Shown one piece after another: positions 5,749 through 44,802 of a stretch of 64,000 nt of DNA; the first letter of the stretch is position 1, and the number at the start of each line of letters is the position of its first letter. A program made the translations under genes and the position numbers. This DNA comes from a virus, in the IMG/VR virus record IMGVR_UViG_3300020420_000009, positions 1-64,000 of that record; one strand, given 5' to 3'. The notes beneath the pieces were generated by a model that was not told where the DNA came from, made no database searches, and was given only the letters and a program-made list of their open reading frames with translations.

Positions 5749-6624
5749 TTAACCACCTCTTCTTCTTTCTGTTATAAAGTTGGGATTTATGTCCCGACCT
5801 ATAGTTCCAGCACGAGTTATAAAACTGTCTACTCTAGATAGATTTCTTAATATATCTCCTGCTTTCGAATTAAATCTAGATGCAACCGTGAGACCCTCAA
5901 GAATTGCATCAAACATTCTTCTCCCTTTATTTAGTCCACTCAACGAGAAGTTTCCGTCCAGTGGTTGATTCATTTCTAATTCATTGAATGCTGTTGGATA
6001 CTCAACACTAAAATATCTGTATGACATATCAAAACTAAATTTCATTAAAGTGTTTTCTGATTCTGCATCTAAGTCCATTGAGTCATACGAACTTGGATAA
6101 CATTCATGAAATGTATAAATTAGTGAAGCACTTCCGTCTTTTTTTAGAACATGGATTCTGAATTTACAATCCTGTGCATATTCTTTATAGAATCTCATGA
6201 CACTGTTTCCAGCACTGTTATCTAATTCACTAAATGTATCTATGTTTGAGGAGTGAACCATTTTTAACCATTCCTCTATTATGAATCTATCCATAAATGT
6301 TGGGTCACAGTAAAAACTTAAGTTTACTGAACTTCCATAGTCAACTCCACCTGTAGGGTATTGTCTCTCTGGGCCAAAGGTAGCATAACCAGTTGTCTCT
6401 AATGATTTAGCTGGTAAACTTGCACCATGACATAAGACATTTAATTGGTCTTGGTCTCCTGATATGTTTAAATGTTCTTGAAACATTTTGGGTAAGTTTA
6501 AAAACTCAACAAAGAATCTATTGTTCACCATAGGTGATGCAATCTTAGCTTTTATTCTGTCTATACCTGTGTCTTTTGAATTATAATCTTCTACTGGAAC
6601 TGGGTCTTTATATTTGTTTGCCAT
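5749..6624 (-). CDS. gp54: gp54-like baseplate tail-tube initiator
   Basis: Tube-fold motifs NRFFVEF, LCHGASLPAKSL and YTFHECYPSS; synteny. Confidence 0.75.
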   Translation of the reverse strand: MANKYKDPVPVEDYNSKDTGIDRIKAKIASPMVNNRFFVEFLNLPKMFQEHLNISGDQDQLNVLCHGASLPAKSLETTGYATFGPERQYPTGGVDYGSSVNLSFYCDPTFMDRFIIEEWLKMVHSSNIDTFSELDNSAGNSVMRFYKEYAQDCKFRIHVLKKDGSASLIYTFHECYPSSYDSMDLDAESENTLMKFSFDMSYRYFSVEYPTAFNELEMNQPLDGNFSLSGLNKGRRMFDAILEGLTVASRFNSKAGDILRNLSRVDSFITRAGTIGRDINPNFITERRRGG

Positions 6625-7202
6625 TAAAATTTCTTCCTACTATCTGAATATACTGAATTTGCATTTGCATTTTGGAATCTAGTAGAAGGCAACATAGCCA
6701 CTAAACTAAAATGTTCAGGTAATACCTGACATATCCTACTATCTATATTCGAATACACATATTGTTTTACACATGGTCTTGCACGATTCAAACGACTTAT
6801 ATTTTTTACCATATCATAAACAAGTTTGAATCTAGTGTCTTCGGGTTGGTCTTCATTCTCGTCTAGAAAATCATACATTTCATTTAATAATATTGACCTA
6901 TCTGAGGGTGAAATGTAATGTAGATTCAAACCTAAGAATCCAGTTCCATACCTTTTTAAAACTATTACTAATGGAAAGTAATCCCAGTATTTTAATTTTG
7001 AAGCTGTCTTAGGTAAGTAATGAAACATATACATTCTACCTAGTTCAGGTCTTGCAACAAAATTTTGATTTTCGTTTTGAAGTTGGTCTGAACTTCTTTT
7101 AATATACCTTACATTTTCCCTAAACCATTCTAGAGAATTTAGAGATAAGTCCTCAATATTATCGGGTCTCTCAATTTTGATTTCTTCGAATAAACTTGCC
7201 AT
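6624..7202 (-). CDS. gp2: gp2-like DNA end protector protein
   Basis: GRMYMFHYLPK...LKYWDYFPLV...GFLGLNLHYI...PCVKQY. Confidence 0.9.
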   Translation of the reverse strand: MASLFEEIKIERPDNIEDLSLNSLEWFRENVRYIKRSSDQLQNENQNFVARPELGRMYMFHYLPKTASKLKYWDYFPLVIVLKRYGTGFLGLNLHYISPSDRSILLNEMYDFLDENEDQPEDTRFKLVYDMVKNISRLNRARPCVKQYVYSNIDSRICQVLPEHFSLVAMLPSTRFQNANANSVYSDSRKKF

Positions 7203-7208
7203 TGTCTA

Positions 7209-8030
7209 TTATTTATGATAATTGTTGTATAAAGTGAAGTTTTCTTTTTCAATTATTTTCTTATTAGGCATAAAATCTAGGAAGTGTCTACAGTCTTCTA
7301 CACCAACATGACCTACTATTTTGATATTTGACCCCTTGTCAGTAAATAAATCCTCTAGAATCGGGTCACAGGTGCCTTCTAGGGTGGCTTTCTCGCCACC
7401 AAAACACTTAATAGTCTCTTTAACTTGGCTGTGGAGTTGGTCTCTCTCCTCACCAACATGGACTTCTAACTTATCGTCATACTTTGCAAAGAAAAGAGAC
7501 TCTTCTCTAGGGTATCCGTATAGTTTCCACCAGTCCTCGAAGGATAATTTAGGAAAATCTAACCTATCTCCGATATCCCATACAACAAAATCCTCGTTGC
7601 AATCGGTATATTCTATAGCATGAACTCTAAACTGGCCTGGGTGAGCAAACCAAAACTCTTTTCCTTCTTTTAGAATAGCTTGAGGCACAGAATAGAGACC
7701 TTGAGTCTTTATGTTATGCACTAACCATTGAAGTTTTACCCCATGGAAGAAACAATTCCTATGGTGGTCTTCCATAAACTCAAGAAATTTGCTTTCGTGA
7801 TACTCTAAGTTCCAACCATATAAAAAATATAGTCCATAATAATCTATAACAGTCATTCTATGTTTATCAAGATACATTGCCATGCCGTCATACAGACCTT
7901 CTTCCTTTGCACGGTCAAAGGGTATTAGTTTTGGATTGAACTTTTCGTAGGGTGTAAAGATTTCTTTGACTTCTTCGTCTGTTAACTTTCGTCCTTCATG
8001 GTCTTGGACAAAGACATGTTCCATAGGCAT
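7209..8030 (-). CDS. Hypothetical protein with a ParB/sulfiredoxin-like motif
   Basis: KLQWLVHNIKTQGLYSVPQ...HPGQFR, similar to the N-terminal half of 40895..42556. Confidence 0.55.
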   Translation of the reverse strand: MPMEHVFVQDHEGRKLTDEEVKEIFTPYEKFNPKLIPFDRAKEEGLYDGMAMYLDKHRMTVIDYYGLYFLYGWNLEYHESKFLEFMEDHHRNCFFHGVKLQWLVHNIKTQGLYSVPQAILKEGKEFWFAHPGQFRVHAIEYTDCNEDFVVWDIGDRLDFPKLSFEDWWKLYGYPREESLFFAKYDDKLEVHVGEERDQLHSQVKETIKCFGGEKATLEGTCDPILEDLFTDKGSNIKIVGHVGVEDCRHFLDFMPNKKIIEKENFTLYNNYHK

Positions 8031-8758
8031 TAGTTATAACTCTTAATTTTTAATTCAACTAGCTTTAAATCGTCAGGGGTGTCTACGGATAACCCTTCGT
8101 CTTCTACTTCAATCATTTTTATATTGAATCCGTTCTCTAGATATCTTAACATTTCAACATTCTCTTCTATTTCGTTTTCATGTCTATCCATATGTGGAAA
8201 GACATCTAACATACCTCTCTTATATGCATACAATCCTAATTGTTGATACCTTGATATGGGAAGTCTACTATAATATAATGCATGGTTATCTTTATCCATG
8301 ACAACCTTAACAACATTAGGGTCAGTTAGTTTATATTCTTGGTCAACTCTAACATATGCATTTACAATATCAGTCTCATCGTCAAAGTCTGTAATCATTT
8401 TATCTATGGCTTCAGGATTTATCAAGGGTTCGTCCCCTTGAATGTTTACAAAGATATCTCCGTCCAATAAACTTAAAGCTTTTGCACACCTGTCTGTTCC
8501 AGTTGAACATTCGTCTTCAATAACAATACACCTCATCTCATGTTTTGAACAGTAATTAGATATTCTTGAATCGTCTGTAAGAACTACAACGGTATCAAGT
8601 TCTTTTGACATACATGCACGGTCATATACTCTCTTAATCATAGGTATACCCGATATATCTACAAGAGGTTTACCCTCAAATCTAGTTGAACCCCACCTTG
8701 CTGGTATTAGTCCAACAACAAGTTCAGATTCGTAATCGATTCTAGCGACACTTCGCAT
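8030..8758 (-). CDS. kdsB: 3-deoxy-manno-octulosonate cytidylyltransferase (CMP-Kdo synthetase)-like
   Basis: IPARWGSTRFEGKPL, STGTDR, VNIQGDEPLI, ALYYSRLPI, SVDTPDDL. Confidence 0.9.
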   Translation of the reverse strand: MRSVARIDYESELVVGLIPARWGSTRFEGKPLVDISGIPMIKRVYDRACMSKELDTVVVLTDDSRISNYCSKHEMRCIVIEDECSTGTDRCAKALSLLDGDIFVNIQGDEPLINPEAIDKMITDFDDETDIVNAYVRVDQEYKLTDPNVVKVVMDKDNHALYYSRLPISRYQQLGLYAYKRGMLDVFPHMDRHENEIEENVEMLRYLENGFNIKMIEVEDEGLSVDTPDDLKLVELKIKSYN

Positions 8759-9297
8759 TCAACTTCTCCATAACCATATTTTGCATGTATAAAATCAACA
8801 CCAGCTCTCTTTGCACATTCGTAATCAGTCTGCATGTCTCCTATGTAAACTGTTTCACTTGGTTCTGTATTACAGAATGCCATAGTATATAGTAATTGGT
8901 CGGGAGCTGGTTTACCTCGTAGACCCATTGTGGGTGGACAAACAAAATCGAACTCAGGTAATTGTTCTAAAAGTAAATTAGTTCGTCTTTCACTCTTAGA
9001 AGTGCAAATTGCAGTCTTATAATTTTGTTTTAAGTCGGTAAGTGTATCAAATACACCGTCATATAGGTCTATCATATTTAGATTTTGTTCAGAAGTCTCT
9101 TCATAAGTCGTTTGGACATCTCTAGAGACACCTAATGCGTCCATTATTTGAACAAAAGGTTTTCCAATGTGTTTTTTATATGATTCAAAGGGTGTTTCTA
9201 TATTATGTGTGAGTCTAACTGCGTTCCAAGACAATTTCATGTTAGGTAATGAGTCAATAAGGACTCCGTCTAAATCAAATACTATTAATTTCTTCAC
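8707..9297 (-). CDS. HAD-superfamily phosphatase
   Basis: FDLDGVLIDS motif I, KPAPD and YIGDMQTD. Confidence 0.9.
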   Translation of the reverse strand: MKKLIVFDLDGVLIDSLPNMKLSWNAVRLTHNIETPFESYKKHIGKPFVQIMDALGVSRDVQTTYEETSEQNLNMIDLYDGVFDTLTDLKQNYKTAICTSKSERRTNLLLEQLPEFDFVCPPTMGLRGKPAPDQLLYTMAFCNTEPSETVYIGDMQTDYECAKRAGVDFIHAKYGYGEVECEVSLESITNLNLLLD

Positions 9298-9740
9298 TTT
9301 TTCTTTTTTGGGACTAAATGGTCTTCTGTTAAAATACGAAATCCCATTTTTCGGTCTTTACAGAACTCTTCAGCTGCCTCAAATTTTGCTTGGTTAATTA
9401 TATATGTCAAAACTTTCTGTTTAAACTTCCTAGTCTGTCGTTTTGGCACAGGTGGAGGCTTACATTGAGACTTTGGTTTAACCTCAATGATTTCTCTTAT
9501 TGCTTGACCCTTAGAATTTACATATTTTATGTAAAAATCGGGGAAATACCTATGAATTTTCTTATCAAGAGGCGATTTGTAAGGAATTATGATTTCTTCA
9601 CTTCCCCATTCAACAATACTAGGGTTATTATCACAGTAAACCATGAATCTTCTCTCCCACAAAGACCTATAATAGATTTTTGTAGGGTCTCCCTTGTATT
9701 TTTTGTAATTCTTCGGTTTAAACTTACCACTGTATGACAT
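9294..9740 (-). CDS. gp4: gp4-like head completion nuclease
   Basis: YSGKFKPKNYKKYKGDP, YRSLWE, HRYFPDF and IEVKP. Confidence 0.93.
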   Translation of the reverse strand: MSYSGKFKPKNYKKYKGDPTKIYYRSLWERRFMVYCDNNPSIVEWGSEEIIIPYKSPLDKKIHRYFPDFYIKYVNSKGQAIREIIEVKPKSQCKPPPVPKRQTRKFKQKVLTYIINQAKFEAAEEFCKDRKMGFRILTEDHLVPKKKK

Positions 9741-9777
9741 AAATAGAATTAAAGACCTTTATTTTAGGATATTTATA
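9738..9777. promoter_or_regulatory. Divergent late promoters for the gp4 and gp48 operons
   Basis: CATAAATA on + at 9738-9745 and TATAAATA on - at 9770-9777. Confidence 0.6.
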
Positions 9778-10898
9778 TGCCAAATATTAATAAGTTATTA
9801 AACAAAGTAAACCAAGCCACTCAAGCAATTAAATCAGTCAAGGGAATCAAATCTAAGATTGAAAGTATAGGATATAAGGGTGGAGTCAATACAGAAGAAG
9901 TAGACCAACTACAATCTATTGCAGAAGACAACAGAAGAAAATTAGAAGAGAGAGCAAACCTACTCCAATCACAATTATCATCAGTAAATTCAGGTAAAAA
10001 GAAAACTAAAAAACCACCACCAAAGCCAGACGAGGATTTACAATATCCACTTGATTTAGAAGGTGATAATTATATTGTTTTTACAATGAGAGCAAGAAAA
10101 TCTAGGGGTGGTGATTCAGAAGGTGGTGGAAATTATTTTTCTGATGCAGAACAACTGACACATATTGCACTTTACATTCCTGATGACATTACACAAGCTA
10201 GTGCAGTATCATATAAAGAAGAAGGTGTGGGTTCTTTCCAAAGGGGAATGTCTGATATAAGTAATGCTGAGTTTGGAGGTGGTGCAAAAGTAGATGCAAC
10301 AATAGACACTATCAAAAATGTTGTTGGTGAAATAGGAAATAAAATTATGGGTGGTCTTGGAGGTAGTGCTAGAAACCTCAAACAAGGTATGGCTGTAAAT
10401 CCAATGCAAGAACAAATGTTAGAGGGAGTTGCTTTCAGAGAACATACTTTTGCATATGACTTTTATCCAAAGTCAGAAGAAGAAGCAAAAGTTGTTATGA
10501 ATATAATCAGAACATTTAGACTTGCTTCTCTCCCTGATACATTTGCTTCTTTCGAAGGTGATTCACCTAACGAAAACTTCTTTAATTATCCTAATGTTTT
10601 TGATGTCACTTTAGAAGGCCCTATTGCAGCTCAAGTAGAAGGGTTCTTACCTATGGTTTTAAAAGACATAACTGTAGATACATTCGGAGGAAACTCCAAA
10701 GGATTGATTGCTCAAGAAGAAGAGGGTTCAGGTGATTTAGTTGCATATTATCCAGCTCATAGTAGTATGTCTTTAACCTTCACAGAGATTAGAATATTAA
10801 CTCAAGAAACTTATGATACACATGTTGGTGCAAGGTCTCTTGCTGGTGACTTGACAGGTGGTTCACCAAGTATCTTAGATAATAATACAGGAGGATAA
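9777..10898 (+). CDS. gp48: gp48-like baseplate tail-tube cap
   Basis: LQYPLD, IALYIP, NPMQEQMLEGVAFREHTFAYDFYPKSEEEA, LTFTE. Confidence 0.85.
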   Translation: MPNINKLLNKVNQATQAIKSVKGIKSKIESIGYKGGVNTEEVDQLQSIAEDNRRKLEERANLLQSQLSSVNSGKKKTKKPPPKPDEDLQYPLDLEGDNYIVFTMRARKSRGGDSEGGGNYFSDAEQLTHIALYIPDDITQASAVSYKEEGVGSFQRGMSDISNAEFGGGAKVDATIDTIKNVVGEIGNKIMGGLGGSARNLKQGMAVNPMQEQMLEGVAFREHTFAYDFYPKSEEEAKVVMNIIRTFRLASLPDTFASFEGDSPNENFFNYPNVFDVTLEGPIAAQVEGFLPMVLKDITVDTFGGNSKGLIAQEEEGSGDLVAYYPAHSSMSLTFTEIRILTQETYDTHVGARSLAGDLTGGSPSILDNNTGG

Positions 10899-31025: not shown

Positions 31026-32621
31026 ATGGCTGATGAAATATACATAAATCAAGGTTCCCAAGTTCAACAACCCTATCAGGGACAGATTGCCTATCAAGCA
31101 TTTGAAACAACTCAAAGAACTACACAACTTGGAGTAAACAGACAAGGACAACAACCTTTTCCTTTTATTGCTCAAAGTCCTTTTACATATAGAAACCCTG
31201 TTAATCAGCAACAACCTAATATTAGAGATGGACAGAACCCATTTACATATACAAGACAAGGTCAGTCACCGTTTACATACGACCACCAATCACCCTTTAC
31301 ATATAATAGTCAAAATGTTGCTAAGCAATCTTCGTATATTGCAAATGCACAACAACCATATCCGTATATTGCAAATGTTCAAGAACCTAATATCAGAAAT
31401 GCACAAACTACTATTCAAAATGTAAGTAAACAAAGTCCTTTTACATATGATTATCAATCGCCAGGCACTACACCTGTTCAAGGACAACAACCAGTAATTA
31501 GAGATAAACAAATAACTTACGGGAATAATGCAACAGGTCAAAGACCTCTTGCTCAAGGTGGGGTTCAAGCACCAAATAATATTCAAACACCATTTACATA
31601 TCAACATTTACAACCAAGAATGGGTGGATATCAAACTATACCTCAAGCATATCCAGGCCGATTCTATGATGATGATTCGCCAGGCTTTGCAACATATCAA
31701 TATCAGGTTCCAATTATTGCTCAGGCGAGACAACCAAGTCAATTCCAAGCAGCTAATGTGCAAACTCCAACTCCAGCAATTGCAAATTCACAGGCACCAT
31801 ATCCGTATATTGGTCAAGCACAACATTTAACATTTTATTTTAGTCCTAATACTGGTGAGGATTATCCATACAGAACACCAACACAAGCACAGGCTCAAGG
31901 AAGAACACCTTCTACATATCAAGTGCAGGCTAGAACACCGTCATTTACAACACAACAACCGTATCCTTACATACAATATTCTCAAGGCCCTACTACATAT
32001 GAACATAGGTCTCCGTTTACATATCAAACACCGACACAGGAACCTAATATTAGAGATGCAAGACAACCTGTAATATATCAACACCAACAACCAAGCACAT
32101 ATGATTATCAATCACCTAATACATATGCAAGACAAGGACAGACTCCTTTCACATATACTGCAAGACAACCTGTGATATATCAGAATGTTGGTGCAAGCGC
32201 ACAAGAACCAAACATTAGGTCAGGACAACAACCTTATCCATATATTGCACAGGGTAGACAACCATTTACATATAATTATAGGTCACCTTCAACATATCAG
32301 AGTCCTGTAAGTGGGCAACAACCAATTAATTCAACTGGTAGAAATCCATTTCCTTATATACACCAACAACCACAACCGTATATTTACAATTCACCATATA
32401 TTGCAAGACAACCATATACTACAACTAGAAATATAGGTGCTGTTGCAAAAGTTAAAGGTATATTTGTAAATAATCAAGGTGTAGTTGCAAAAGCACAAGA
32501 AGTATATGTGAATGCACCTCAAGGATTAGAAAAAGTTCACCAAGCAGTTCCAAATGCACAATTCTTAAAAGGAACAGAAGGTGACGGTGGACAAACACCA
32601 TATCAACCTGGCCCCGGCTAA
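31026..32621 (+). CDS. Gln/Pro/Tyr-rich repeat fibre protein 1
   Basis: Repeats QQPYPYIA, QEPNIR and QSPFTY; C-terminal VKGIFVNNQG...EVYVN module. Confidence 0.75.
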   Translation: MADEIYINQGSQVQQPYQGQIAYQAFETTQRTTQLGVNRQGQQPFPFIAQSPFTYRNPVNQQQPNIRDGQNPFTYTRQGQSPFTYDHQSPFTYNSQNVAKQSSYIANAQQPYPYIANVQEPNIRNAQTTIQNVSKQSPFTYDYQSPGTTPVQGQQPVIRDKQITYGNNATGQRPLAQGGVQAPNNIQTPFTYQHLQPRMGGYQTIPQAYPGRFYDDDSPGFATYQYQVPIIAQARQPSQFQAANVQTPTPAIANSQAPYPYIGQAQHLTFYFSPNTGEDYPYRTPTQAQAQGRTPSTYQVQARTPSFTTQQPYPYIQYSQGPTTYEHRSPFTYQTPTQEPNIRDARQPVIYQHQQPSTYDYQSPNTYARQGQTPFTYTARQPVIYQNVGASAQEPNIRSGQQPYPYIAQGRQPFTYNYRSPSTYQSPVSGQQPINSTGRNPFPYIHQQPQPYIYNSPYIARQPYTTTRNIGAVAKVKGIFVNNQGVVAKAQEVYVNAPQGLEKVHQAVPNAQFLKGTEGDGGQTPYQPGPG

Positions 32622-38667: not shown

Positions 38668-40071
38668 ATGGCGTCAGGTTCACAGAAAGTTAAAACCCCA
38701 TCAGGTTGGAATGCAACTCAAGGTGCATGGGTCAAGACAGGCCCGTCTACTTGGAAAGCAGTTGACCAAATTTATATTAAAGCTCCAGGCGGGTGGAATA
38801 ATGCTTCAGGTCAAGAGGCAGTGCAACAACCTTATCCATATATTGCACAGGGTGGTTCTCCATATATTGCAAATGCACAGAACCCATATCCCTATATTGC
38901 AAATGCACAGGAACCAAACATTAGGTCAGCACAACAACCTTATCCTTACATTGCAGACGGTGGGTCACCTTATATTGCAAATGGACAGGAACCTAATATT
39001 AGAAACCAACAGGAACCAAATATTCGTTCTGCACAGCAACCGTATCCATATATTGCAAATGCACAGGAACCTAATATAAGAAACAGACAAAATCCGTTTA
39101 CATACGACCATAGGTCACCTTTTACATATAATCACAGAAGTCCTTTTACATATGACCATAGGTCACCTTTTACATATCGTAATCCGTTTACTTACAATCA
39201 TAGGTCACCATTTACATATAACTATAGGTCACCGTTTACATACAGAAGTCCTGTGAGTGCTCAGGAACCTAATATTAGGAATGGACAGAACCCATTTACA
39301 TATCCAGCAAATATTCAACAACCGAATATTCGTTCTGCACAACAACCGTTTACATATCCAGCAAATATTCAACAACCAAATATTAGGAGTGCTCAACAAC
39401 CGTTCACATATCCTGCGAATATTCAGCAACCTAATATAAGAGACGCTAGGACACCGTTTACCTATCATGCAAGACAGCCGGGCAGTGCAAGACAACCAGT
39501 TCCTTTCTCATATCAAAGTCCATATATCGGAACTGCAAGACAACCAGTTTACTACCCAGGCGGTGGTTCACCAGGCTTCGGTGGTGGTTGTTTCGCAATG
39601 GGAACTATGATATGGATGAGCGACAATACATACAGACCAATCGAAACTATAGAAATTGGAATGTCAGTAATGACATTCGGAGAATCAATAGAGGTTGGAG
39701 TGGTCGAAGAACTTATGCAGCCTAGAGTGTGTGGGTTATACGATATAGAAGTCAACGGTAAAATTACTGGTGTGACTGGAGGACACCCATTCTTAGTTCA
39801 AGATAAAGGGTGGTGTGTTATAAACATGGAAGACTGGGAGCAAGAAGTTGCTGACGGTGTTGCTTGGGGTGGAGAAGTCTCAGGTGTAATTGAAGAGGGT
39901 GATATCCTTGTAGATTCATTATCATTGATTTTAAATAATCAATCGAATGCAAAGGTATCTAATATTAACAAATTGGAAGGAGAACATGAGGTCTATCACT
40001 TGGCTCGTGTAAGTGATAATGCGAACTTCTTTGCAAATGACTTTGTAGTCCATAACTTACAGAAGAGATAA
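38668..40071 (+). CDS. Gln/Pro/Tyr-rich repeat fibre protein 2, N-terminal half, with a C-terminal Hint domain
   Basis: N-terminal WVK...WK...IYIK...GW module; repeats; GGG|CFAMGT...TGGHPF...VYHL...NFFANDFVVHN. Confidence 0.85.
   Translation: MASGSQKVKTPSGWNATQGAWVKTGPSTWKAVDQIYIKAPGGWNNASGQEAVQQPYPYIAQGGSPYIANAQNPYPYIANAQEPNIRSAQQPYPYIADGGSPYIANGQEPNIRNQQEPNIRSAQQPYPYIANAQEPNIRNRQNPFTYDHRSPFTYNHRSPFTYDHRSPFTYRNPFTYNHRSPFTYNYRSPFTYRSPVSAQEPNIRNGQNPFTYPANIQQPNIRSAQQPFTYPANIQQPNIRSAQQPFTYPANIQQPNIRDARTPFTYHARQPGSARQPVPFSYQSPYIGTARQPVYYPGGGSPGFGGGCFAMGTMIWMSDNTYRPIETIEIGMSVMTFGESIEVGVVEELMQPRVCGLYDIEVNGKITGVTGGHPFLVQDKGWCVINMEDWEQEVADGVAWGGEVSGVIEEGDILVDSLSLILNNQSNAKVSNINKLEGEHEVYHLARVSDNANFFANDFVVHNLQKR
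39589..40056 (+). other. Hint (intein-like) autoprocessing domain, 156 aa, no endonuclease
   Basis: Block A Cys1 (CFAMGT), block B TxxH (TGGH), block F (VYHL...NFFAN), block G HN; the +1 residue is Leu. Confidence 0.88.
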
Positions 40072-40072
40072 T

Positions 40073-40867
40073 ATGCCATTTTATCAAAGTGTATATGCAA
40101 CTCAAGCAAGACAACCAGTTCCTGCGAGTTATCAGAGCCCATACGGAACTCAGAATCCTTACATTGCAAATGCAAGACAACCGTTTACCTATAATTATAG
40201 GTCACCGTTTACATATCAAGCACCTGCTAGAAACCCTTTCACTTATCATTATAGGTCACCCTTTACATATCAAGCACCCGCTAGAAACCCTTTCACCTAT
40301 AATTACAGGTCACCATTCACCTATCAGGCACCTGCGAGACAGCCTTTTACTTATCACTATAGGTCACCGTTCACTTATAGAAATCCAGTATCAGCACAAG
40401 AACCAAATATCAGGTCAGCACAACAACCGAATATTAGAGATGCACAATCACCAAGTAATGCACAACAACCTACTATTAAGTCAGCACAAGAACCAAACAT
40501 TAGGTCAGCACAGGAACCTAATATTAGGGACGCAAGACAACCTTCTACATATGATTATCGTTCACCTTCAACATACGAAAGACAGGGTCAAACACCTTTC
40601 ACATATGACCATAGGTCACCTTTAACATATTCACATAGAAGTCCGTTTACATATAGTAATCAGAACCCTACAACTTATGCAAGACAGGGTCAGACACCAT
40701 TTACTTACAACTATAGAAGTCCTTCGACATATGCAAGACAAGGTCAGACACCTACTACATACAGTAATCAAAACCCGACTACTTATGCAAGACAAGGTAG
40801 AACACCAGTTATTAGGTGGGACGGAGTCTTACAACAACAATGGCCTGGAACACCGATATCTAGTTAA
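40073..40867 (+). CDS. Gln/Pro/Tyr-rich repeat fibre protein 2, C-terminal half
   Basis: Same repeat vocabulary (RSPFTY, QEPNIR, RQGQTPFTY); starts 1 nt after the upstream stop (TAATATG). Confidence 0.8.
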   Translation: MPFYQSVYATQARQPVPASYQSPYGTQNPYIANARQPFTYNYRSPFTYQAPARNPFTYHYRSPFTYQAPARNPFTYNYRSPFTYQAPARQPFTYHYRSPFTYRNPVSAQEPNIRSAQQPNIRDAQSPSNAQQPTIKSAQEPNIRSAQEPNIRDARQPSTYDYRSPSTYERQGQTPFTYDHRSPLTYSHRSPFTYSNQNPTTYARQGQTPFTYNYRSPSTYARQGQTPTTYSNQNPTTYARQGRTPVIRWDGVLQQQWPGTPISS

Positions 40868-40894: not shown

Positions 40895-42556
40895 ATGGAT
40901 ACTTTTGAATATATACAAACCCTAGACCGAGCAAAAGAGTTATTCAAACCCTATACTTCTTATGAGGATATGCCTACAAAGCAAGTTCAATTAGGTCAAC
41001 TCCCTGTTCCAAAACATAGAAAAGATACAGACGAAACAGAAGAAGTGTGGAGATACATTATAGATGAATGTATGCCTCCAATTAGATTAGTCACTTGGAA
41101 AGATATAAAACCTTTAATGGATAGTAAAGAGATTATGTCATGGGGTGGATTAGACCACAACGCATATCAATACTTAAATTATCTACATAAAGGTTGGACA
41201 GAAGAAAATAGACCCGACCACCCTCTCAAAGGTGGTTCTATGGATTATATGAATGCAGACGGTGAATACGAATGTCTTACTCAACCTACAATAAAAACAG
41301 CTTATGATAGGATAAAGTTTGCAGACAAATATGGATATGTAGAAGGAACTCAAGAATATGAAGACTTAATGAATGGAGTTATAGATATAACTCTTGATTC
41401 TGAAAAAGAAAATACAATATGTTCTATTTACTATCACGCTGCAAAAGCTCATTGGTTAATAAATGATATACAAAAGAATGGTCTCTGGCAACCTATTCAA
41501 GGTCTTACACACTACACAGGAAATCCAGGCGGTAAACATTCTTTATCTATACACCCTGGCTCAATGAGAAGTAGGTCTTTTCAATCAATGGATTATCCCG
41601 ATAATACTTGTCTTGTCACTGATTATAGTAATTGTTTTCCTAATCACCCTCGTTTAAGTATGGAAAATATAAGAGATTATTGGTTCTCTCTAATACCTAA
41701 AGAGGGTAGAAATGTAAATGCAATTTATACAGACCAAAGAAAAATAGAGTTTAGTCCCTCTTTAGTTCAAGGTGGTGGAACTGATTTTAGAAAATATGTT
41801 TATGCATATAATAAGAAAGTGACAAAGTTATGTAAAAAGAAACCTTTAAACATATACATTGGTTATGATTCTTCTCACGATAATATTATACATGAAGTTT
41901 GTGAAAAGTCAATACATGATAGCATAGAAAGGTCAAAAAGTAAAGGCGCAGGAGCGGATTACTTTAACGATTTTGAAATAGAAACTAAATTACTTGACAT
42001 AAGCAAAATAAAAGATTATAATAGAGACTATGCAAATCAATCTACTGAATTTACATATAGTAGATTTTTAATTCCATATCTAGAAAACTATGAGGGGTTT
42101 AGTATCTTTATAGATAATGATTACATATGGAAGAGAACTCCTTTACCATTTTTCTATTTTCTTGACCCCGACCATGCTGTTGCTTGTGTGCAATATGATT
42201 TTGAACACCATGACAGTGTAAAAATGGGTGGAGAAGTAAATATATCATATCCTAAAAAACTATGGTCTAGTATGATGATATTTAATAATGGACACGAAGA
42301 TTGTAAAAAGTTAACACCCGAAGTTGTTAATAATCAGTCAGGTAAATATTTACATCAGTTTGAATGGACAGATAAAATTAGTAAAATACCTCATGGAAAA
42401 ATTGCAACAGAAGGATTTGAAACAGAATGTCTTGATTCACACCATGCAGTCCATTATACAAGGGGTGGGCCATGGATAAAAGGCATGGATTGTTCAAACA
42501 TAAATATGTTAGAACAATTTTATAAAGTGAAAAGCACCTTGCCAACAAACAAATAA
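40895..42556 (+). CDS. Glycosyltransferase (GT-A, GT8-like) fused to an N-terminal ParB/Srx-like domain
   Basis: IYIGYDS, QSTEFTYSRFLIPYL, FIDND, YPKKLWSSMMIFN, HYTRGGPW. Confidence 0.85.
   Translation: MDTFEYIQTLDRAKELFKPYTSYEDMPTKQVQLGQLPVPKHRKDTDETEEVWRYIIDECMPPIRLVTWKDIKPLMDSKEIMSWGGLDHNAYQYLNYLHKGWTEENRPDHPLKGGSMDYMNADGEYECLTQPTIKTAYDRIKFADKYGYVEGTQEYEDLMNGVIDITLDSEKENTICSIYYHAAKAHWLINDIQKNGLWQPIQGLTHYTGNPGGKHSLSIHPGSMRSRSFQSMDYPDNTCLVTDYSNCFPNHPRLSMENIRDYWFSLIPKEGRNVNAIYTDQRKIEFSPSLVQGGGTDFRKYVYAYNKKVTKLCKKKPLNIYIGYDSSHDNIIHEVCEKSIHDSIERSKSKGAGADYFNDFEIETKLLDISKIKDYNRDYANQSTEFTYSRFLIPYLENYEGFSIFIDNDYIWKRTPLPFFYFLDPDHAVACVQYDFEHHDSVKMGGEVNISYPKKLWSSMMIFNNGHEDCKKLTPEVVNNQSGKYLHQFEWTDKISKIPHGKIATEGFETECLDSHHAVHYTRGGPWIKGMDCSNINMLEQFYKVKSTLPTNK
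41994..42022 (+). promoter_or_regulatory. Perfect sigma70 consensus promoter inside the glycosyltransferase gene
   Basis: TTGACA-17 nt-TATAAT. Confidence 0.55.
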
Positions 42557-42567
42557 TATGGTATACT
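42539..42567 (+). promoter_or_regulatory. Sigma70-type promoter with extended -10
   Basis: TTGCCA-17 nt-TATACT with TGn; directly before the 42578 start. Confidence 0.6.
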
Positions 42568-42577
42568 GGAGATTATT

Positions 42578-43153
42578 ATGAATGCATTAACTTATTGTGA
42601 GTTTGGAAATCTACAAATTAGAAAACCAAACGGATTAGAATATCGATTTGAAAATGTCGATAAGCCTGAATTAGGTTTTGATTATGAGGTTTTAATATAC
42701 GACCAAATAGAAGTCAAAGTATTAAAATGGGAAGAAGGAAAACCTTTAGAAGAACAGGAAACATTACCTTTATCTGAGACAGATAGAGATAGTATTGAAA
42801 AATATATTTCAAATTCAGAACCACCTATGGGTGTAAATTTGAATAATCAATTTATCGGTGAAATTAATAGAGCTGCACGAGAGAATATACAATTACAATC
42901 ACAGAAACATGGTTTTGATGATTTCTTTGAATGTATATATGCTGGAAGAGAAGGTTCTGCTCACCCTTATAGGTCAGACGCAAGACGAGTATTAGAATAT
43001 GCAGATGCAACTAATAATGTTCTTGACGGTCTTTTCAGAGAAATATCTGTCACTAGAGAAGATACTTTAAAACCTATAGAAGAATATCTTTTGGCTTTAC
43101 CTACTCCCTCAAATTTGAAGGACGGAGGATTTAATGCCGAACATAAACTTTGA
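42578..43153 (+). CDS. Hypothetical protein, C-terminus resembling tail-fibre assembly proteins
   Basis: QKHGFDDFFECIYA...PYRSDARRV...PIEEYLLALP pattern. Confidence 0.5.
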   Translation: MNALTYCEFGNLQIRKPNGLEYRFENVDKPELGFDYEVLIYDQIEVKVLKWEEGKPLEEQETLPLSETDRDSIEKYISNSEPPMGVNLNNQFIGEINRAARENIQLQSQKHGFDDFFECIYAGREGSAHPYRSDARRVLEYADATNNVLDGLFREISVTREDTLKPIEEYLLALPTPSNLKDGGFNAEHKL

Positions 43154-43871
43154 TTCAATCGAACAGGTTGATTTAGACTCACCTTTTTATATTACCGAGG
43201 CACCTCTTGGTAATAAAATATATGTAATAGACAATTATCTTGATTCGTCTCTACACCATGCAATAGACCAATACCTAAATCACTCTACCTCATGGTTAAA
43301 AGGTAATGAGGTTAGTGGTGGAAAGGGAAGAGGTGGATTACCTAATCACCAACTATGGGGAGCTTCATATTTTAGAGGAAGAGATATTGGTGACGGCAGA
43401 AAAGAAAAAGTTATATGTGAATCTCATAGACATGGTATCCCTCATTTAATGAATTGGTTTGATAGAAAGATTAGAACAGATTTTGGTTTTGAATGGGTTA
43501 GGTTTCAGTATATGGGAACTAATTCACAAACACATGGTTTAGACGGAAGTAGTCATTCAGATTGTAGTCCTCATGATAATTATAATCTCTCTTTTTTATA
43601 TTACACTAATACCTTTTGGAATGATAATTGGGGTGGTGATTTGAGATTTTACGATAGACATGTTCCTACAGGTGCAAGAGAATTAATGAACAAATATGAA
43701 ATAGGAAGAGTTGCATTCAAACCAAATAGGTTATTAATGTTTGACGGAAGAATAGAACATGGTGCAGAATCCCCTTCTAAAGAAGCAAGATATATAGATA
43801 GGAAGTCTATCGTTTTGAGAGGAGACGAGATTAGACTATTAGACGAGAAACAAAGATATGCCAACTGTTGA
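43134..43871 (+). CDS. 2OG-Fe(II) oxygenase (prolyl-hydroxylase-like)
   Basis: HSD iron motif, WGGDLRFY, FKPNRLLMFDGRIEH, RKS. Confidence 0.88.
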   Translation: MPNINFDSIEQVDLDSPFYITEAPLGNKIYVIDNYLDSSLHHAIDQYLNHSTSWLKGNEVSGGKGRGGLPNHQLWGASYFRGRDIGDGRKEKVICESHRHGIPHLMNWFDRKIRTDFGFEWVRFQYMGTNSQTHGLDGSSHSDCSPHDNYNLSFLYYTNTFWNDNWGGDLRFYDRHVPTGARELMNKYEIGRVAFKPNRLLMFDGRIEHGAESPSKEARYIDRKSIVLRGDEIRLLDEKQRYANC

Positions 43872-44802
43872 ATTTAGAACATATAATCCCGAAGCTTTTC
43901 AAAGATTTAAACCAGTCGTTGCAAAAAGTTATATGCCAGAATGGTGGAAGACTGCAAAGATTAAAATAGACCATAGAGGTTTAGCTGCTCAAACTATAAG
44001 GTCTTGTCCAGCAATGGACGATTATTTAAAAACTGGTTGGTATATTATTACTGCATGTGACATTCCTGTTATGAATGGTGAAACTTGGGATTGGCCAGAC
44101 GGTGGAGAAAGTTTTACAACAAGAGTAGAAAACTTAGACGGAACTGATAATTTACAATATTCTCCAACTCACCCAGCTGCACAGTTTCAAGATTCATTTG
44201 AATATATGGGTGACGAAGGGCCTGTAAAAGATGCATTCAAAATGGGAAATTTTTGGAACATAACTACACCTCCAGGCTATTCAGTTTTTTTCATAGACCC
44301 ATTCTTATTTCAAAATAAATTTTTTGCAGTATGGCAAGGTATAATTGATACAGATACTTTTAACTTAGGTATGGATAACGCACAAATTATTTTTTATCCA
44401 AAGGTAAATCATTCTTTTGTGATACCAAAAGGAACTCCTATATTACAAATAGTTCCTTTTAAAAGAGACGAGTGGAAGTCAACATTTATATACGGTAAAT
44501 CTAAAGATTGGTATAACACACATGGTGTAGTAGAAGAGTCAATGCAAAAATGGCAAAAGGATTTTGGTTTACAAGACCCTTATACAGGACAAACTGTGCC
44601 AGTCGAAGATAGATTAAATATCGGTGGATATAGAAAGGCTGGGTTTAAAAGTAATAAAGCTACTTTATATAATGAAGGTGACAATCCACCACCTGAATGT
44701 CCTATGCATAGAAAAGAAGAGGTTCAGTTGGAAATGGATTTTAAAGAAAAACAAAGAAGTATGACAGACTTAAATTGGGACGGACATGAAGAAAGGGATT
44801 AG
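43858..44802 (+). CDS. Conserved phage protein of oxygenase clusters (dUTPase-like/DUF6065-like)
   Basis: PEWWK, TIRSCPAMDDY, WNITTPPGYS, GIIDTD, IPKGTPILQIVPFKR. Confidence 0.7.
   Translation: MPTVEFRTYNPEAFQRFKPVVAKSYMPEWWKTAKIKIDHRGLAAQTIRSCPAMDDYLKTGWYIITACDIPVMNGETWDWPDGGESFTTRVENLDGTDNLQYSPTHPAAQFQDSFEYMGDEGPVKDAFKMGNFWNITTPPGYSVFFIDPFLFQNKFFAVWQGIIDTDTFNLGMDNAQIIFYPKVNHSFVIPKGTPILQIVPFKRDEWKSTFIYGKSKDWYNTHGVVEESMQKWQKDFGLQDPYTGQTVPVEDRLNIGGYRKAGFKSNKATLYNEGDNPPPECPMHRKEEVQLEMDFKEKQRSMTDLNWDGHEERD

Follow-up and report, generated by a model that had tools for sequence, protein, structure and literature searches.

Organization of the ORF1–ORF2 locus

We analysed a pair of adjoining genes in a 64,000-nucleotide (nt) stretch of viral DNA (IMG/VR record IMGVR_UViG_3300020420_000009, positions 1 to 64,000; this whole stretch is referred to below as the window). 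The first open reading frame (ORF), ORF1, encodes a repeat protein with a Hint domain close to its C-terminus, and the second, ORF2, encodes another repeat protein (Table 1). An initial annotation of this DNA had described ORF1 as Q/P/Y repeats followed by a Hint domain running from Cys to His-Asn, then LQKR and a stop, with a second ORF resuming the repeats one base later, and the sequence agrees with both parts of that description. ORF1 starts with an N-terminal module of about 50 amino acids (aa) and continues through Q/P/Y repeats to ...YYPGGGSPGFGGG, after which the Hint domain opens with CFAMGT, passes through VTGGHP and closes with FVVHN, leaving LQKR before the stop. Together, the anchor module and repeats comprise 307 aa, ending in GGG before Cys308, and beyond residue 50 this part contains neither Lys nor Cys. 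The +1 residue after Asn463 is Leu464. ORF2 (MPFYQS...) opens 1 base past the TAA of ORF1, is read in another frame and has repeats of the kinds found in ORF1.

Table 1. Positions of the described features in the window
Feature	Position	Strand	Description
ORF1	38668..40071	+	467 aa; anchor module, repeat shaft, poly-Gly, Hint, 4-aa tail and stop
N-terminal module of ORF1	38668..38820	+	Conserved, about 51 aa, MASGSQKVKTPSGW...; 80-90% identity among relatives
Q/P/Y repeat region of ORF1	38821..39588	+	Ends ...YYPGGGSPGFGGG before Cys308
Hint domain	39589..40056	+	156 aa, Cys308-Asn463; type-A-BIL-like; block B TGGH; terminal His-Asn; no endonuclease insert
Tail of ORF1	40057..40071	+	Leu-Gln-Lys-Arg and TAA; +1 residue is Leu, not a nucleophile
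ORF2	40073..40867	+	264 aa; repeat protein ending ...RQGRTPVIRWDGVLQQQWPGTPISS; length-matched partner of ORF1
Paralogous single-chain repeat protein	31026..32621	+	531 aa; YPG...SPGF motif at residue 209
Glycosyltransferase-like neighbour	40895..42556	+	553 aa; conserved 3' of the pair in 78 loci; marker gene for the tree

The initial annotation had left room for the stop-then-start junction being an assembly error, and we found it to be no assembly artefact. Contigs from run X2 and from run X7, which belongs to a different study, bridge positions 40068–40075 with 0 differences, as does contig X17 from an RNA library. X17 and a second RNA-library contig, X15, cover parts of the Hint and the junction, although such coverage by itself is no proof of transcription. 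The stretch is complete in six metagenome runs from three studies and covered to at least 78% in eight more runs, from at least six studies overall, and the same layout recurs in independent IMG/VR assemblies (e.g. L002 and L036). Since ORF2 lies in frame +1 relative to ORF1 in the window and in frame +2 in L002, a conserved frameshift or read-through fusion is unlikely.

A 38-nt stretch shortly before the Hint (39487–39524, ARQPVPFSYQSPY) matches a stretch at the start of ORF2 (40106–40143, ARQPVPASYQSPY; family D9) with 79% identity, so that the junction-facing ends of the two chains are alike. No long identical DNA repeat flanking the Hint was found; the best direct repeats between ORF1 and ORF2 are 78–80% identical.

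Database searches returned little for the repeat proteins. None of ORF1, ORF2, the paralogue and the isolated Hint had a family in PHROGs, and Pfam contained none for ORF2 or for the repeat shaft flanking the Hint on its N-terminal side. Public phage genomes gave no match to ORF1 by blastn or tblastn, nor to its 61-aa N-terminal module by tblastn, although the low-complexity filter may hide repeats in such searches. The gene thus has no cultured relative known to us.

The Hint domain is genuine and BIL-like

The sequence at 39589–40056 encodes a complete Hint domain with Cys1, the block-B T-x-x-H motif and the terminal His-Asn. In Pfam, the window copy matched Intein_splicing and, more weakly, Hom_end_hint, Vint and Hint_2. 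Among 19 distinct homologues, 18 matched Intein_splicing (best E = 1.5e-12), 17 Hint, 17 Vint, nine PT-HINT and three Hint_2. PT-HINT, one of the two models suggested in the initial annotation, is one of several overlapping Hint models. The domain is the sole Hint of the 129.7-kb record.

When a profile of the 19 homologues was compared with solved structures, the best matches were bacterial-intein-like (BIL) domains: BUBL1 BIL2 of Tetrahymena (6TMM/6Y75) ranked first (E = 1.5e-15), followed by the C. thermocellum BIL (2LWY; E = 1.7e-12) and then by DnaB and other mini-inteins. An AlphaFold2 model of the domain (predicted local distance difference test score 89.8; predicted template modelling score 0.86) gave a similar ranking in Foldseek. 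The top five hits were four BIL2 chains and 2LWY, with template modelling (TM) scores of 0.67–0.74 (BIL2, E = 2.3e-9 and TM 0.73–0.74; 2LWY, E = 8.5e-8). DnaB mini-inteins came next, and Hedgehog (1AT0) was weaker (TM 0.52). There were 58 PDB matches at E ≤ 1e-3, and all among the matches listed were Hint-fold proteins.

The homologues are 30–87% identical to the window copy, and only 11 columns of their alignment are invariant. Seven of these residues, identical in 19/19, are Gly-1, Cys1, Phe2, the block-B His-Pro and the terminal His-Asn (H165 and N166 in the alignment); besides the catalytic residues, the invariant columns are a few glycines and one Trp. A Thr or Ser stands three residues ahead of the invariant block-B His, and Gly-1 is preceded by Gly runs. 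In the 19 homologues as well as in the further proteins P0001–P0004, the +1 residue is Leu, Met, Arg, Gly, Phe or Tyr, and never Cys, Ser or Thr. The flank after the Hint is 4–29 aa long among the homologues and 4 aa here.

The Hint fold, N-terminal Cys and block-B T-x-x-H place the domain in the Hint (Hedgehog/intein) superfamily. Within it, the C-terminal His-Asn and the missing +1 Cys/Ser/Thr are as in type-A BILs. Canonical class-1 splicing is ruled out, as the initial annotation had concluded, because the +1 residue is not Cys, Ser or Thr. The presence of block-G His-Asn separates the domain from Hedgehog-type Hints and type-B BILs. It also lacks the downstream toxin domain of PT-HINT proteins, only 4–29 aa being left there, and it is not a split intein, as blocks A to G all lie inside ORF1. 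The invariance of His-Asn suggests that the C-terminal reaction is under selection, since, with so short a tail downstream, that reaction would serve no purpose if N-terminal cleavage were all that counted. Judged from the conserved residues, selection appears to act on both junction reactions.

The Hint is optional and independent of the gene split

Loci related to ORF1 were collected in IMG/VR with the 61-aa N-terminal module, and the best 80 of 166 relatives were compared. In 25 of the 80, ORF1 ends with a Hint and a short tail, as in the window. In 35, there is no Hint; ORF1 ends soon after the Gly-rich stretch (e.g. ...PGGGSPGHQQK, ...NSPNPFEP or ...PGEEP) and is followed by ORF2. A further 17 loci (L013, at 6001–10172, L023, L033, L067 and duplicates) have the same N-terminal module and shaft, but ORF1 carries a non-repeat end domain of 145–162 aa and is followed by an ORF of 86–100 aa and then by an ORF2-like gene. 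The remaining three are truncated by contig ends. The end domains and small ORFs of this third class fall into at least three unrelated sequence groups. They gave no match in Pfam, and in tblastn against the 129.7-kb record of the window (71% complete) they gave only chance matches (E > 0.3).

No fused ORF1–ORF2 gene was present among the 80 loci, and the N-termini of ORF2 are alike in the Hint-bearing and Hint-less classes. In L077 (5420–7203), the gene order is reversed; the Hint-bearing ORF1 (400 aa) comes directly after an ORF2-like gene (190 aa) and is itself followed by the glycosyltransferase-like gene. The split between ORF1 and ORF2 is independent of the Hint, which neither created it nor is needed for it. 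The initial annotation had connected the two, proposing that the Hint domain broke a fibre gene at its midpoint, and this connection does not hold. What the 80 loci display is the alternative that it named itself, a sporadic Hint insertion unrelated to the split.

That an ancestral single fibre gene was split at its midpoint by insertion of the Hint, which then served the break, is consequently extremely improbable in our assessment. The idea draws on the position of the Hint at the ORF1/ORF2 boundary in the window and on the resemblance between the 38-nt stretches of family D9. It is at odds with the 35 loci that are split without a Hint, with the reversed order in L077, with the small ORF that separates the two genes in the third class and with the lack of any fused form. 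It had also leaned on the intact paralogue at 31026, in which a homologous point was thought to lie in mid-chain. The YPGRFYDDDSPGF motif is indeed present there, at residue 209 of 531. However, the last 45 aa of ORF1 and the first 45 aa of ORF2 align best to residues 373–421 rather than at the motif, and the score of the ORF1 end (68) is close to the best obtained with shuffled sequences (65). The paralogue argument thus fails statistically, and we dropped the proposed homologous turn.

The history of the Hint was followed on a tree of the glycosyltransferase-like neighbour gene (78 rows). Presence or absence of the Hint required six changes on this tree, at least four of them forced by well-supported branches; shuffled labels required 20.1 on average, and 0/500 shuffles gave a number as low. 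The loci with other end domains form a single clade. Pairwise identities of the Hint and of the neighbour gene were strongly correlated (Mantel r = 0.89, 0/2000 permutations), with medians of 36% and 50%, respectively. From the tree and the Mantel result, we conclude that the Hint is old in this lineage, has mostly been inherited with the locus and was gained or lost several times. It behaves as an insert close to the end of ORF1, one that is optional and has passed mostly by vertical inheritance.

Within the clade of the window, Hint-bearing loci (the window, L002, L036, L041 and L062) stand beside Hint-less ones (L011, L012, L039 and L048), and their ORF1 ends can be aligned. The Hint-bearing ends read ...PGGGSPGFGGG-Hint-LQKR, ...GGGSPGLPTGHG-Hint-MQKR and ...PGGGRGGG-Hint-RQQK, and the Hint-less sister ends read ...PGGGSPGHQQK and ...SGPGLPQHQQK. 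The tail LQKR resembles the Hint-less sister end HQQK.

ORF1 and ORF2 are matched in length

The lengths of the two chains follow a simple rule. In 18/18 distinct loci with a Hint, the stretch of ORF1 ahead of Cys1 is longer than ORF2 by 37–45 aa (r = 0.9997, slope 1.0007, offset about 41 aa), over an ORF2 range of 206–562 aa. The regression omitted duplicate loci, L007, L031 and L054 (in which ORF2 was mis-called by an ATG-only script), L077, the three truncated loci and all loci with other end domains. The loci included are related, so p-values overstate their independence, although the length range is wide even so. In 21 distinct Hint-less loci, the whole of ORF1 exceeds ORF2 by 44–49 aa in 17, with outliers at −43, 27, 28 and 89 (r = 0.981). 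Where ORF1 has another end domain, its repeat part exceeds ORF2 by 30–31 aa in 6/7 loci. L077, which lay outside the regression, obeys the rule despite its swapped order (232 versus 190 aa).

Because the rule holds for the stretch of ORF1 ahead of Cys1, the Hint comes on top of a conserved two-chain design, and the C-terminus of ORF1 behaves as a modular end that may hold nothing, a Hint or a globular domain. The covariation persists with swapped gene order and with an intervening small ORF, which indicates that the two chains must match in length, and the rule supports pairing of ORF1 with ORF2. Taken together with the self-removal of the Hint proposed below, it is probable that ORF1 and ORF2, both ancestral, are separate repeat proteins that are matched in length and belong to a fibre-like virion structure. 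Prediction of an ORF1–ORF2 complex (alignments A2 and A3, respectively) scored 0.00 in both runs, and as the fold of the partner was uncertain, this is no evidence either way. A dot-plot for mirrored repeat order gave matches in blocks with a position correlation of −0.098 and no clean anti-diagonal.

Comparison with known Hint systems

Type-A BILs (Amitai 2003, Dassa 2004, and the C. thermocellum BIL 2LWY, Aranko 2013, all as cited in PMC4031507) share with the phage domain the Hint fold, Cys1, block-B T-x-x-H, His-Asn, the missing +1 Cys/Ser/Thr, the lack of an endonuclease and residence in a variable, non-housekeeping host protein. The phage domain differs in that its host is a repeat protein from the virion module of a phage. 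In addition, its C-terminal flank of 4–29 aa (4 here) ends the protein, so splicing and cleavage would give nearly equal products.

BIL2 of Tetrahymena thermophila BUBL1 is alike in that glycines end the N-terminal flank right before Cys1 and in that the C-terminal flank contains a Lys. Its flanks are ubiquitin-like, whereas those of the phage domain are a Q/P/Y shaft and a 4-aa tail, and sequence identity between the two Hints is just 20–21%. Class-1 mini-inteins (Ssp and Npu DnaB, gp41-1) resemble the phage domain in size, fold, Cys1, T-x-x-H and His-Asn, and its precise presence or absence among alleles recalls an intein and its empty site. Unlike them, the phage family lacks a +1 nucleophile in 19/19 and does not occupy a conserved site of an essential enzyme. 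Hedgehog/Hog proteins and type-B BILs likewise have a C-terminal Hint able to free the N-terminal part through a thioester, but Hedgehog autoprocessing domains are not known to carry a terminal His-Asn, which is invariant in the phage domain.

At E ≤ 1e-3, a wider profile search matched 40,020 proteins, of which 285 remained at E ≤ 1e-30. Outside the ORF1 family, the top matches were metagenome proteins with two to eight tandem Hints (P0005, P0008, P0012 and P0025). Their copies are also preceded by a Gly run leading into Cys-Phe and end with His-Asn followed by Lys or Gly, although they contain no Q/P/Y repeats. As the copies of these proteins are joined in this way, the Gly-run/Cys-Phe and His-Asn-Lys habit is common to a wider BIL-like group. 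One multi-Hint protein starts with what looks like a signal peptide, and its N-terminal part is rich in Cys.

Three further loci were recorded. In L003 (8183–10906), which is another viral contig, a DNA-ligase-like gene is interrupted by an insert that holds a separate 300-aa ORF, possibly a homing endonuclease, and that has a C-terminal motif (DNANFFANG..HNC) resembling that of the fibre Hint. Given the split DNA ligase and the intein-like C-terminal end, L003 was set aside as an ordinary intein. L004 and L005 gave weak partial matches (40–46% identity over about 40 residues).

Probable fate of the Hint domain

According to PMC4031507, type-A BILs retain His-Asn and lack the +1 nucleophile; aminolytic splicing is possible in them and cleavage is dominant, whereas type-B BILs lack block G. 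The route proposed there consists of an N-terminal thioester, cleavage of the C-terminus by Asn cyclization and attack on the thioester by the freed amine of the C-terminal flank. By analogy, we consider it probable that the optional type-A-BIL-like Hint of ORF1, separate from the gene split as it is, just excises itself. An N-to-S acyl shift at Gly307–Cys308 would form a thioester, and cyclization of Asn463 would release the tail. Water could then resolve the thioester and give an end in ...GGG, or an amine on the released tail (the α-amine, or the Lys ε-amine as in BIL2) could do so and give ...GGG-LQKR. With either product, the Hint would be gone and mature ORF1 would be like that of Hint-less sister alleles (...PGGGSPG-HQQK). 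Self-removal with some religation of the tail is favoured, because His-Asn is invariant and the tails resemble Hint-less ends. Hydrolysis to ...GGG would be the alternative product, and the GGG C-terminus foreseen in the initial annotation is supported as an outcome of cleavage alone.

Several points weigh against this interpretation. The window copy scores 31.6 bits against Pfam Intein_splicing (E = 1.7e-7), under the cut-off of 35.8 bits. DnaB mini-inteins rank behind BILs by a few orders of magnitude, a modest margin, and the type-A label consequently rests mainly on His-Asn and the absent +1 nucleophile. Autoprocessing, and the choice between cleavage and religation, we infer by analogy with the systems above, as we do the chemistry and products of the domain in general. 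Moreover, a purely selfish insert would not account for the Hint always lying at this one site, nor would it explain the Lys present in 19/19 Hint tails but absent from 29/35 Hint-less ends. Counted by rows, a Lys occurs in the tail in 27/27 with a Hint versus in the last eight residues in 6/35 without ( the 16 rows of the 78 with other end domains were excluded), although this association comprises only three independent contrasts (sign test, p = 0.5). Lastly, the closest solved relative, BIL2, is a conjugating enzyme, so self-removal is not the sole precedent.

This precedent bears on the built-in ligase suggested in the initial annotation, and to that extent the suggestion stands: as reported in PMC8616854, Tetrahymena BIL2 makes an isopeptide bond between the C-terminus of its N-terminal flank and a lysine ε-amine, conjugating ubl4 to ubl5 and Ras. 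In ORF1, the Gly307 thioester would be taken by an amine of another molecule, attaching the ORF1 end covalently; the acceptor may be ORF2 through its N-terminus (Pro2 once Met is removed), a virion protein through a lysine, or a nucleophile on the host surface. BIL2 is the best match by both profile and fold, Gly-1 is invariant with Gly runs ahead, and the Hint sits at the modular site where 17/80 relatives have their own terminal domain. The length matching of ORF1 and ORF2 and the Met-Pro start of 12/18 aligned ORF2s also fit, as does the Lys in each of the 19 tails next to repeat regions almost free of Lys, with the three-contrast limit given above. Even so, we regard such conjugation as unlikely. 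Relatives without a Hint share these ORF2 N-termini and the length rule, so the pair can do without ligation, and L077 encodes ORF2 ahead of ORF1. The invariant terminal Asn and the tails that look like Hint-less ends fit self-religation better. The record of the window contains no free-standing homologue of the other end domains or small ORFs, and neither the dot-plot nor the tip alignments establish that the C-terminus of ORF1 adjoins the N-terminus of ORF2 in an antiparallel pair. In its most specific form, an ATP-independent, single-turnover fibre ligase that, at the modular end, hands the Gly thioester to a lysine or N-terminal amine of ORF2, of another virion protein or of a molecule on the host surface, as the phage counterpart of the ubiquitin-dispensing BIL2 of Tetrahymena, the proposal seems to us quite unlikely.

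The Hint might instead stay on ORF1 for a time or permanently, either controlling pairing or register as an assembly checkpoint, with processing conditional on assembly, or forming a distal knob. Some tailspikes offer a comparison, having C-terminal intramolecular chaperones that cleave themselves off. Its position, equivalent to that of the 145–162-aa end domains, and its co-inheritance with the locus over deep divergence are compatible with such a role, as is the Zn-dependent switching of the block-B His that PMC8616854 describes for BIL2. Nevertheless, invariance is limited to the catalytic residues, the few glycines and the one Trp, with no sign of a conserved binding surface, and Hint-less relatives assemble without the domain. 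We therefore judge a checkpoint or retained end domain to be very unlikely, and self-removal is retained as the preferred explanation.

Phage context and implications

Upstream of the pair lies a 2223-aa VrlC/DUF4815 baseplate-type protein whose nearest match is in Methylophilales phage Melnitz (35.8% identity), with T4-like cyanomyophages ranking next. For the glycosyltransferase-like neighbour, Pelagibacter phage Mosig is among the phages that gave partial matches. These matches indicate that the phage is an uncultured marine T4-like myophage. Further ORFs follow the glycosyltransferase-like gene (40895–44802 of the window).

BIL domains themselves have been described before, both in variable surface and toxin proteins of bacteria and at polyubiquitin-like loci of ciliates. 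What appears new here is that a Hint of BIL type forms an optional insert, close to the C-terminus, in a protein of a phage fibre module. Our literature search, run mostly outside subscription journals, found no paper that reports a domain of the Hint or BIL kind for fibre proteins of phages; the phage intein papers that it returned (PMC3556154 and PMC5259590) concern inteins of terminase or ribonucleotide reductase and not of fibres.

An abundant marine T4-like lineage thus offers natural Hint-plus and Hint-minus alleles of one protein. These make a clean system for asking whether a nucleophile-less Hint at a protein end cleaves, religates a 4-aa tail or conjugates, and whether it is selfish or useful. 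If conjugation did take place, it would be a new ATP-free route to covalent bonds in the virion. Independently of the fate of the Hint, the length rule linking ORF1 and ORF2 points to an undescribed two-chain fibre design.

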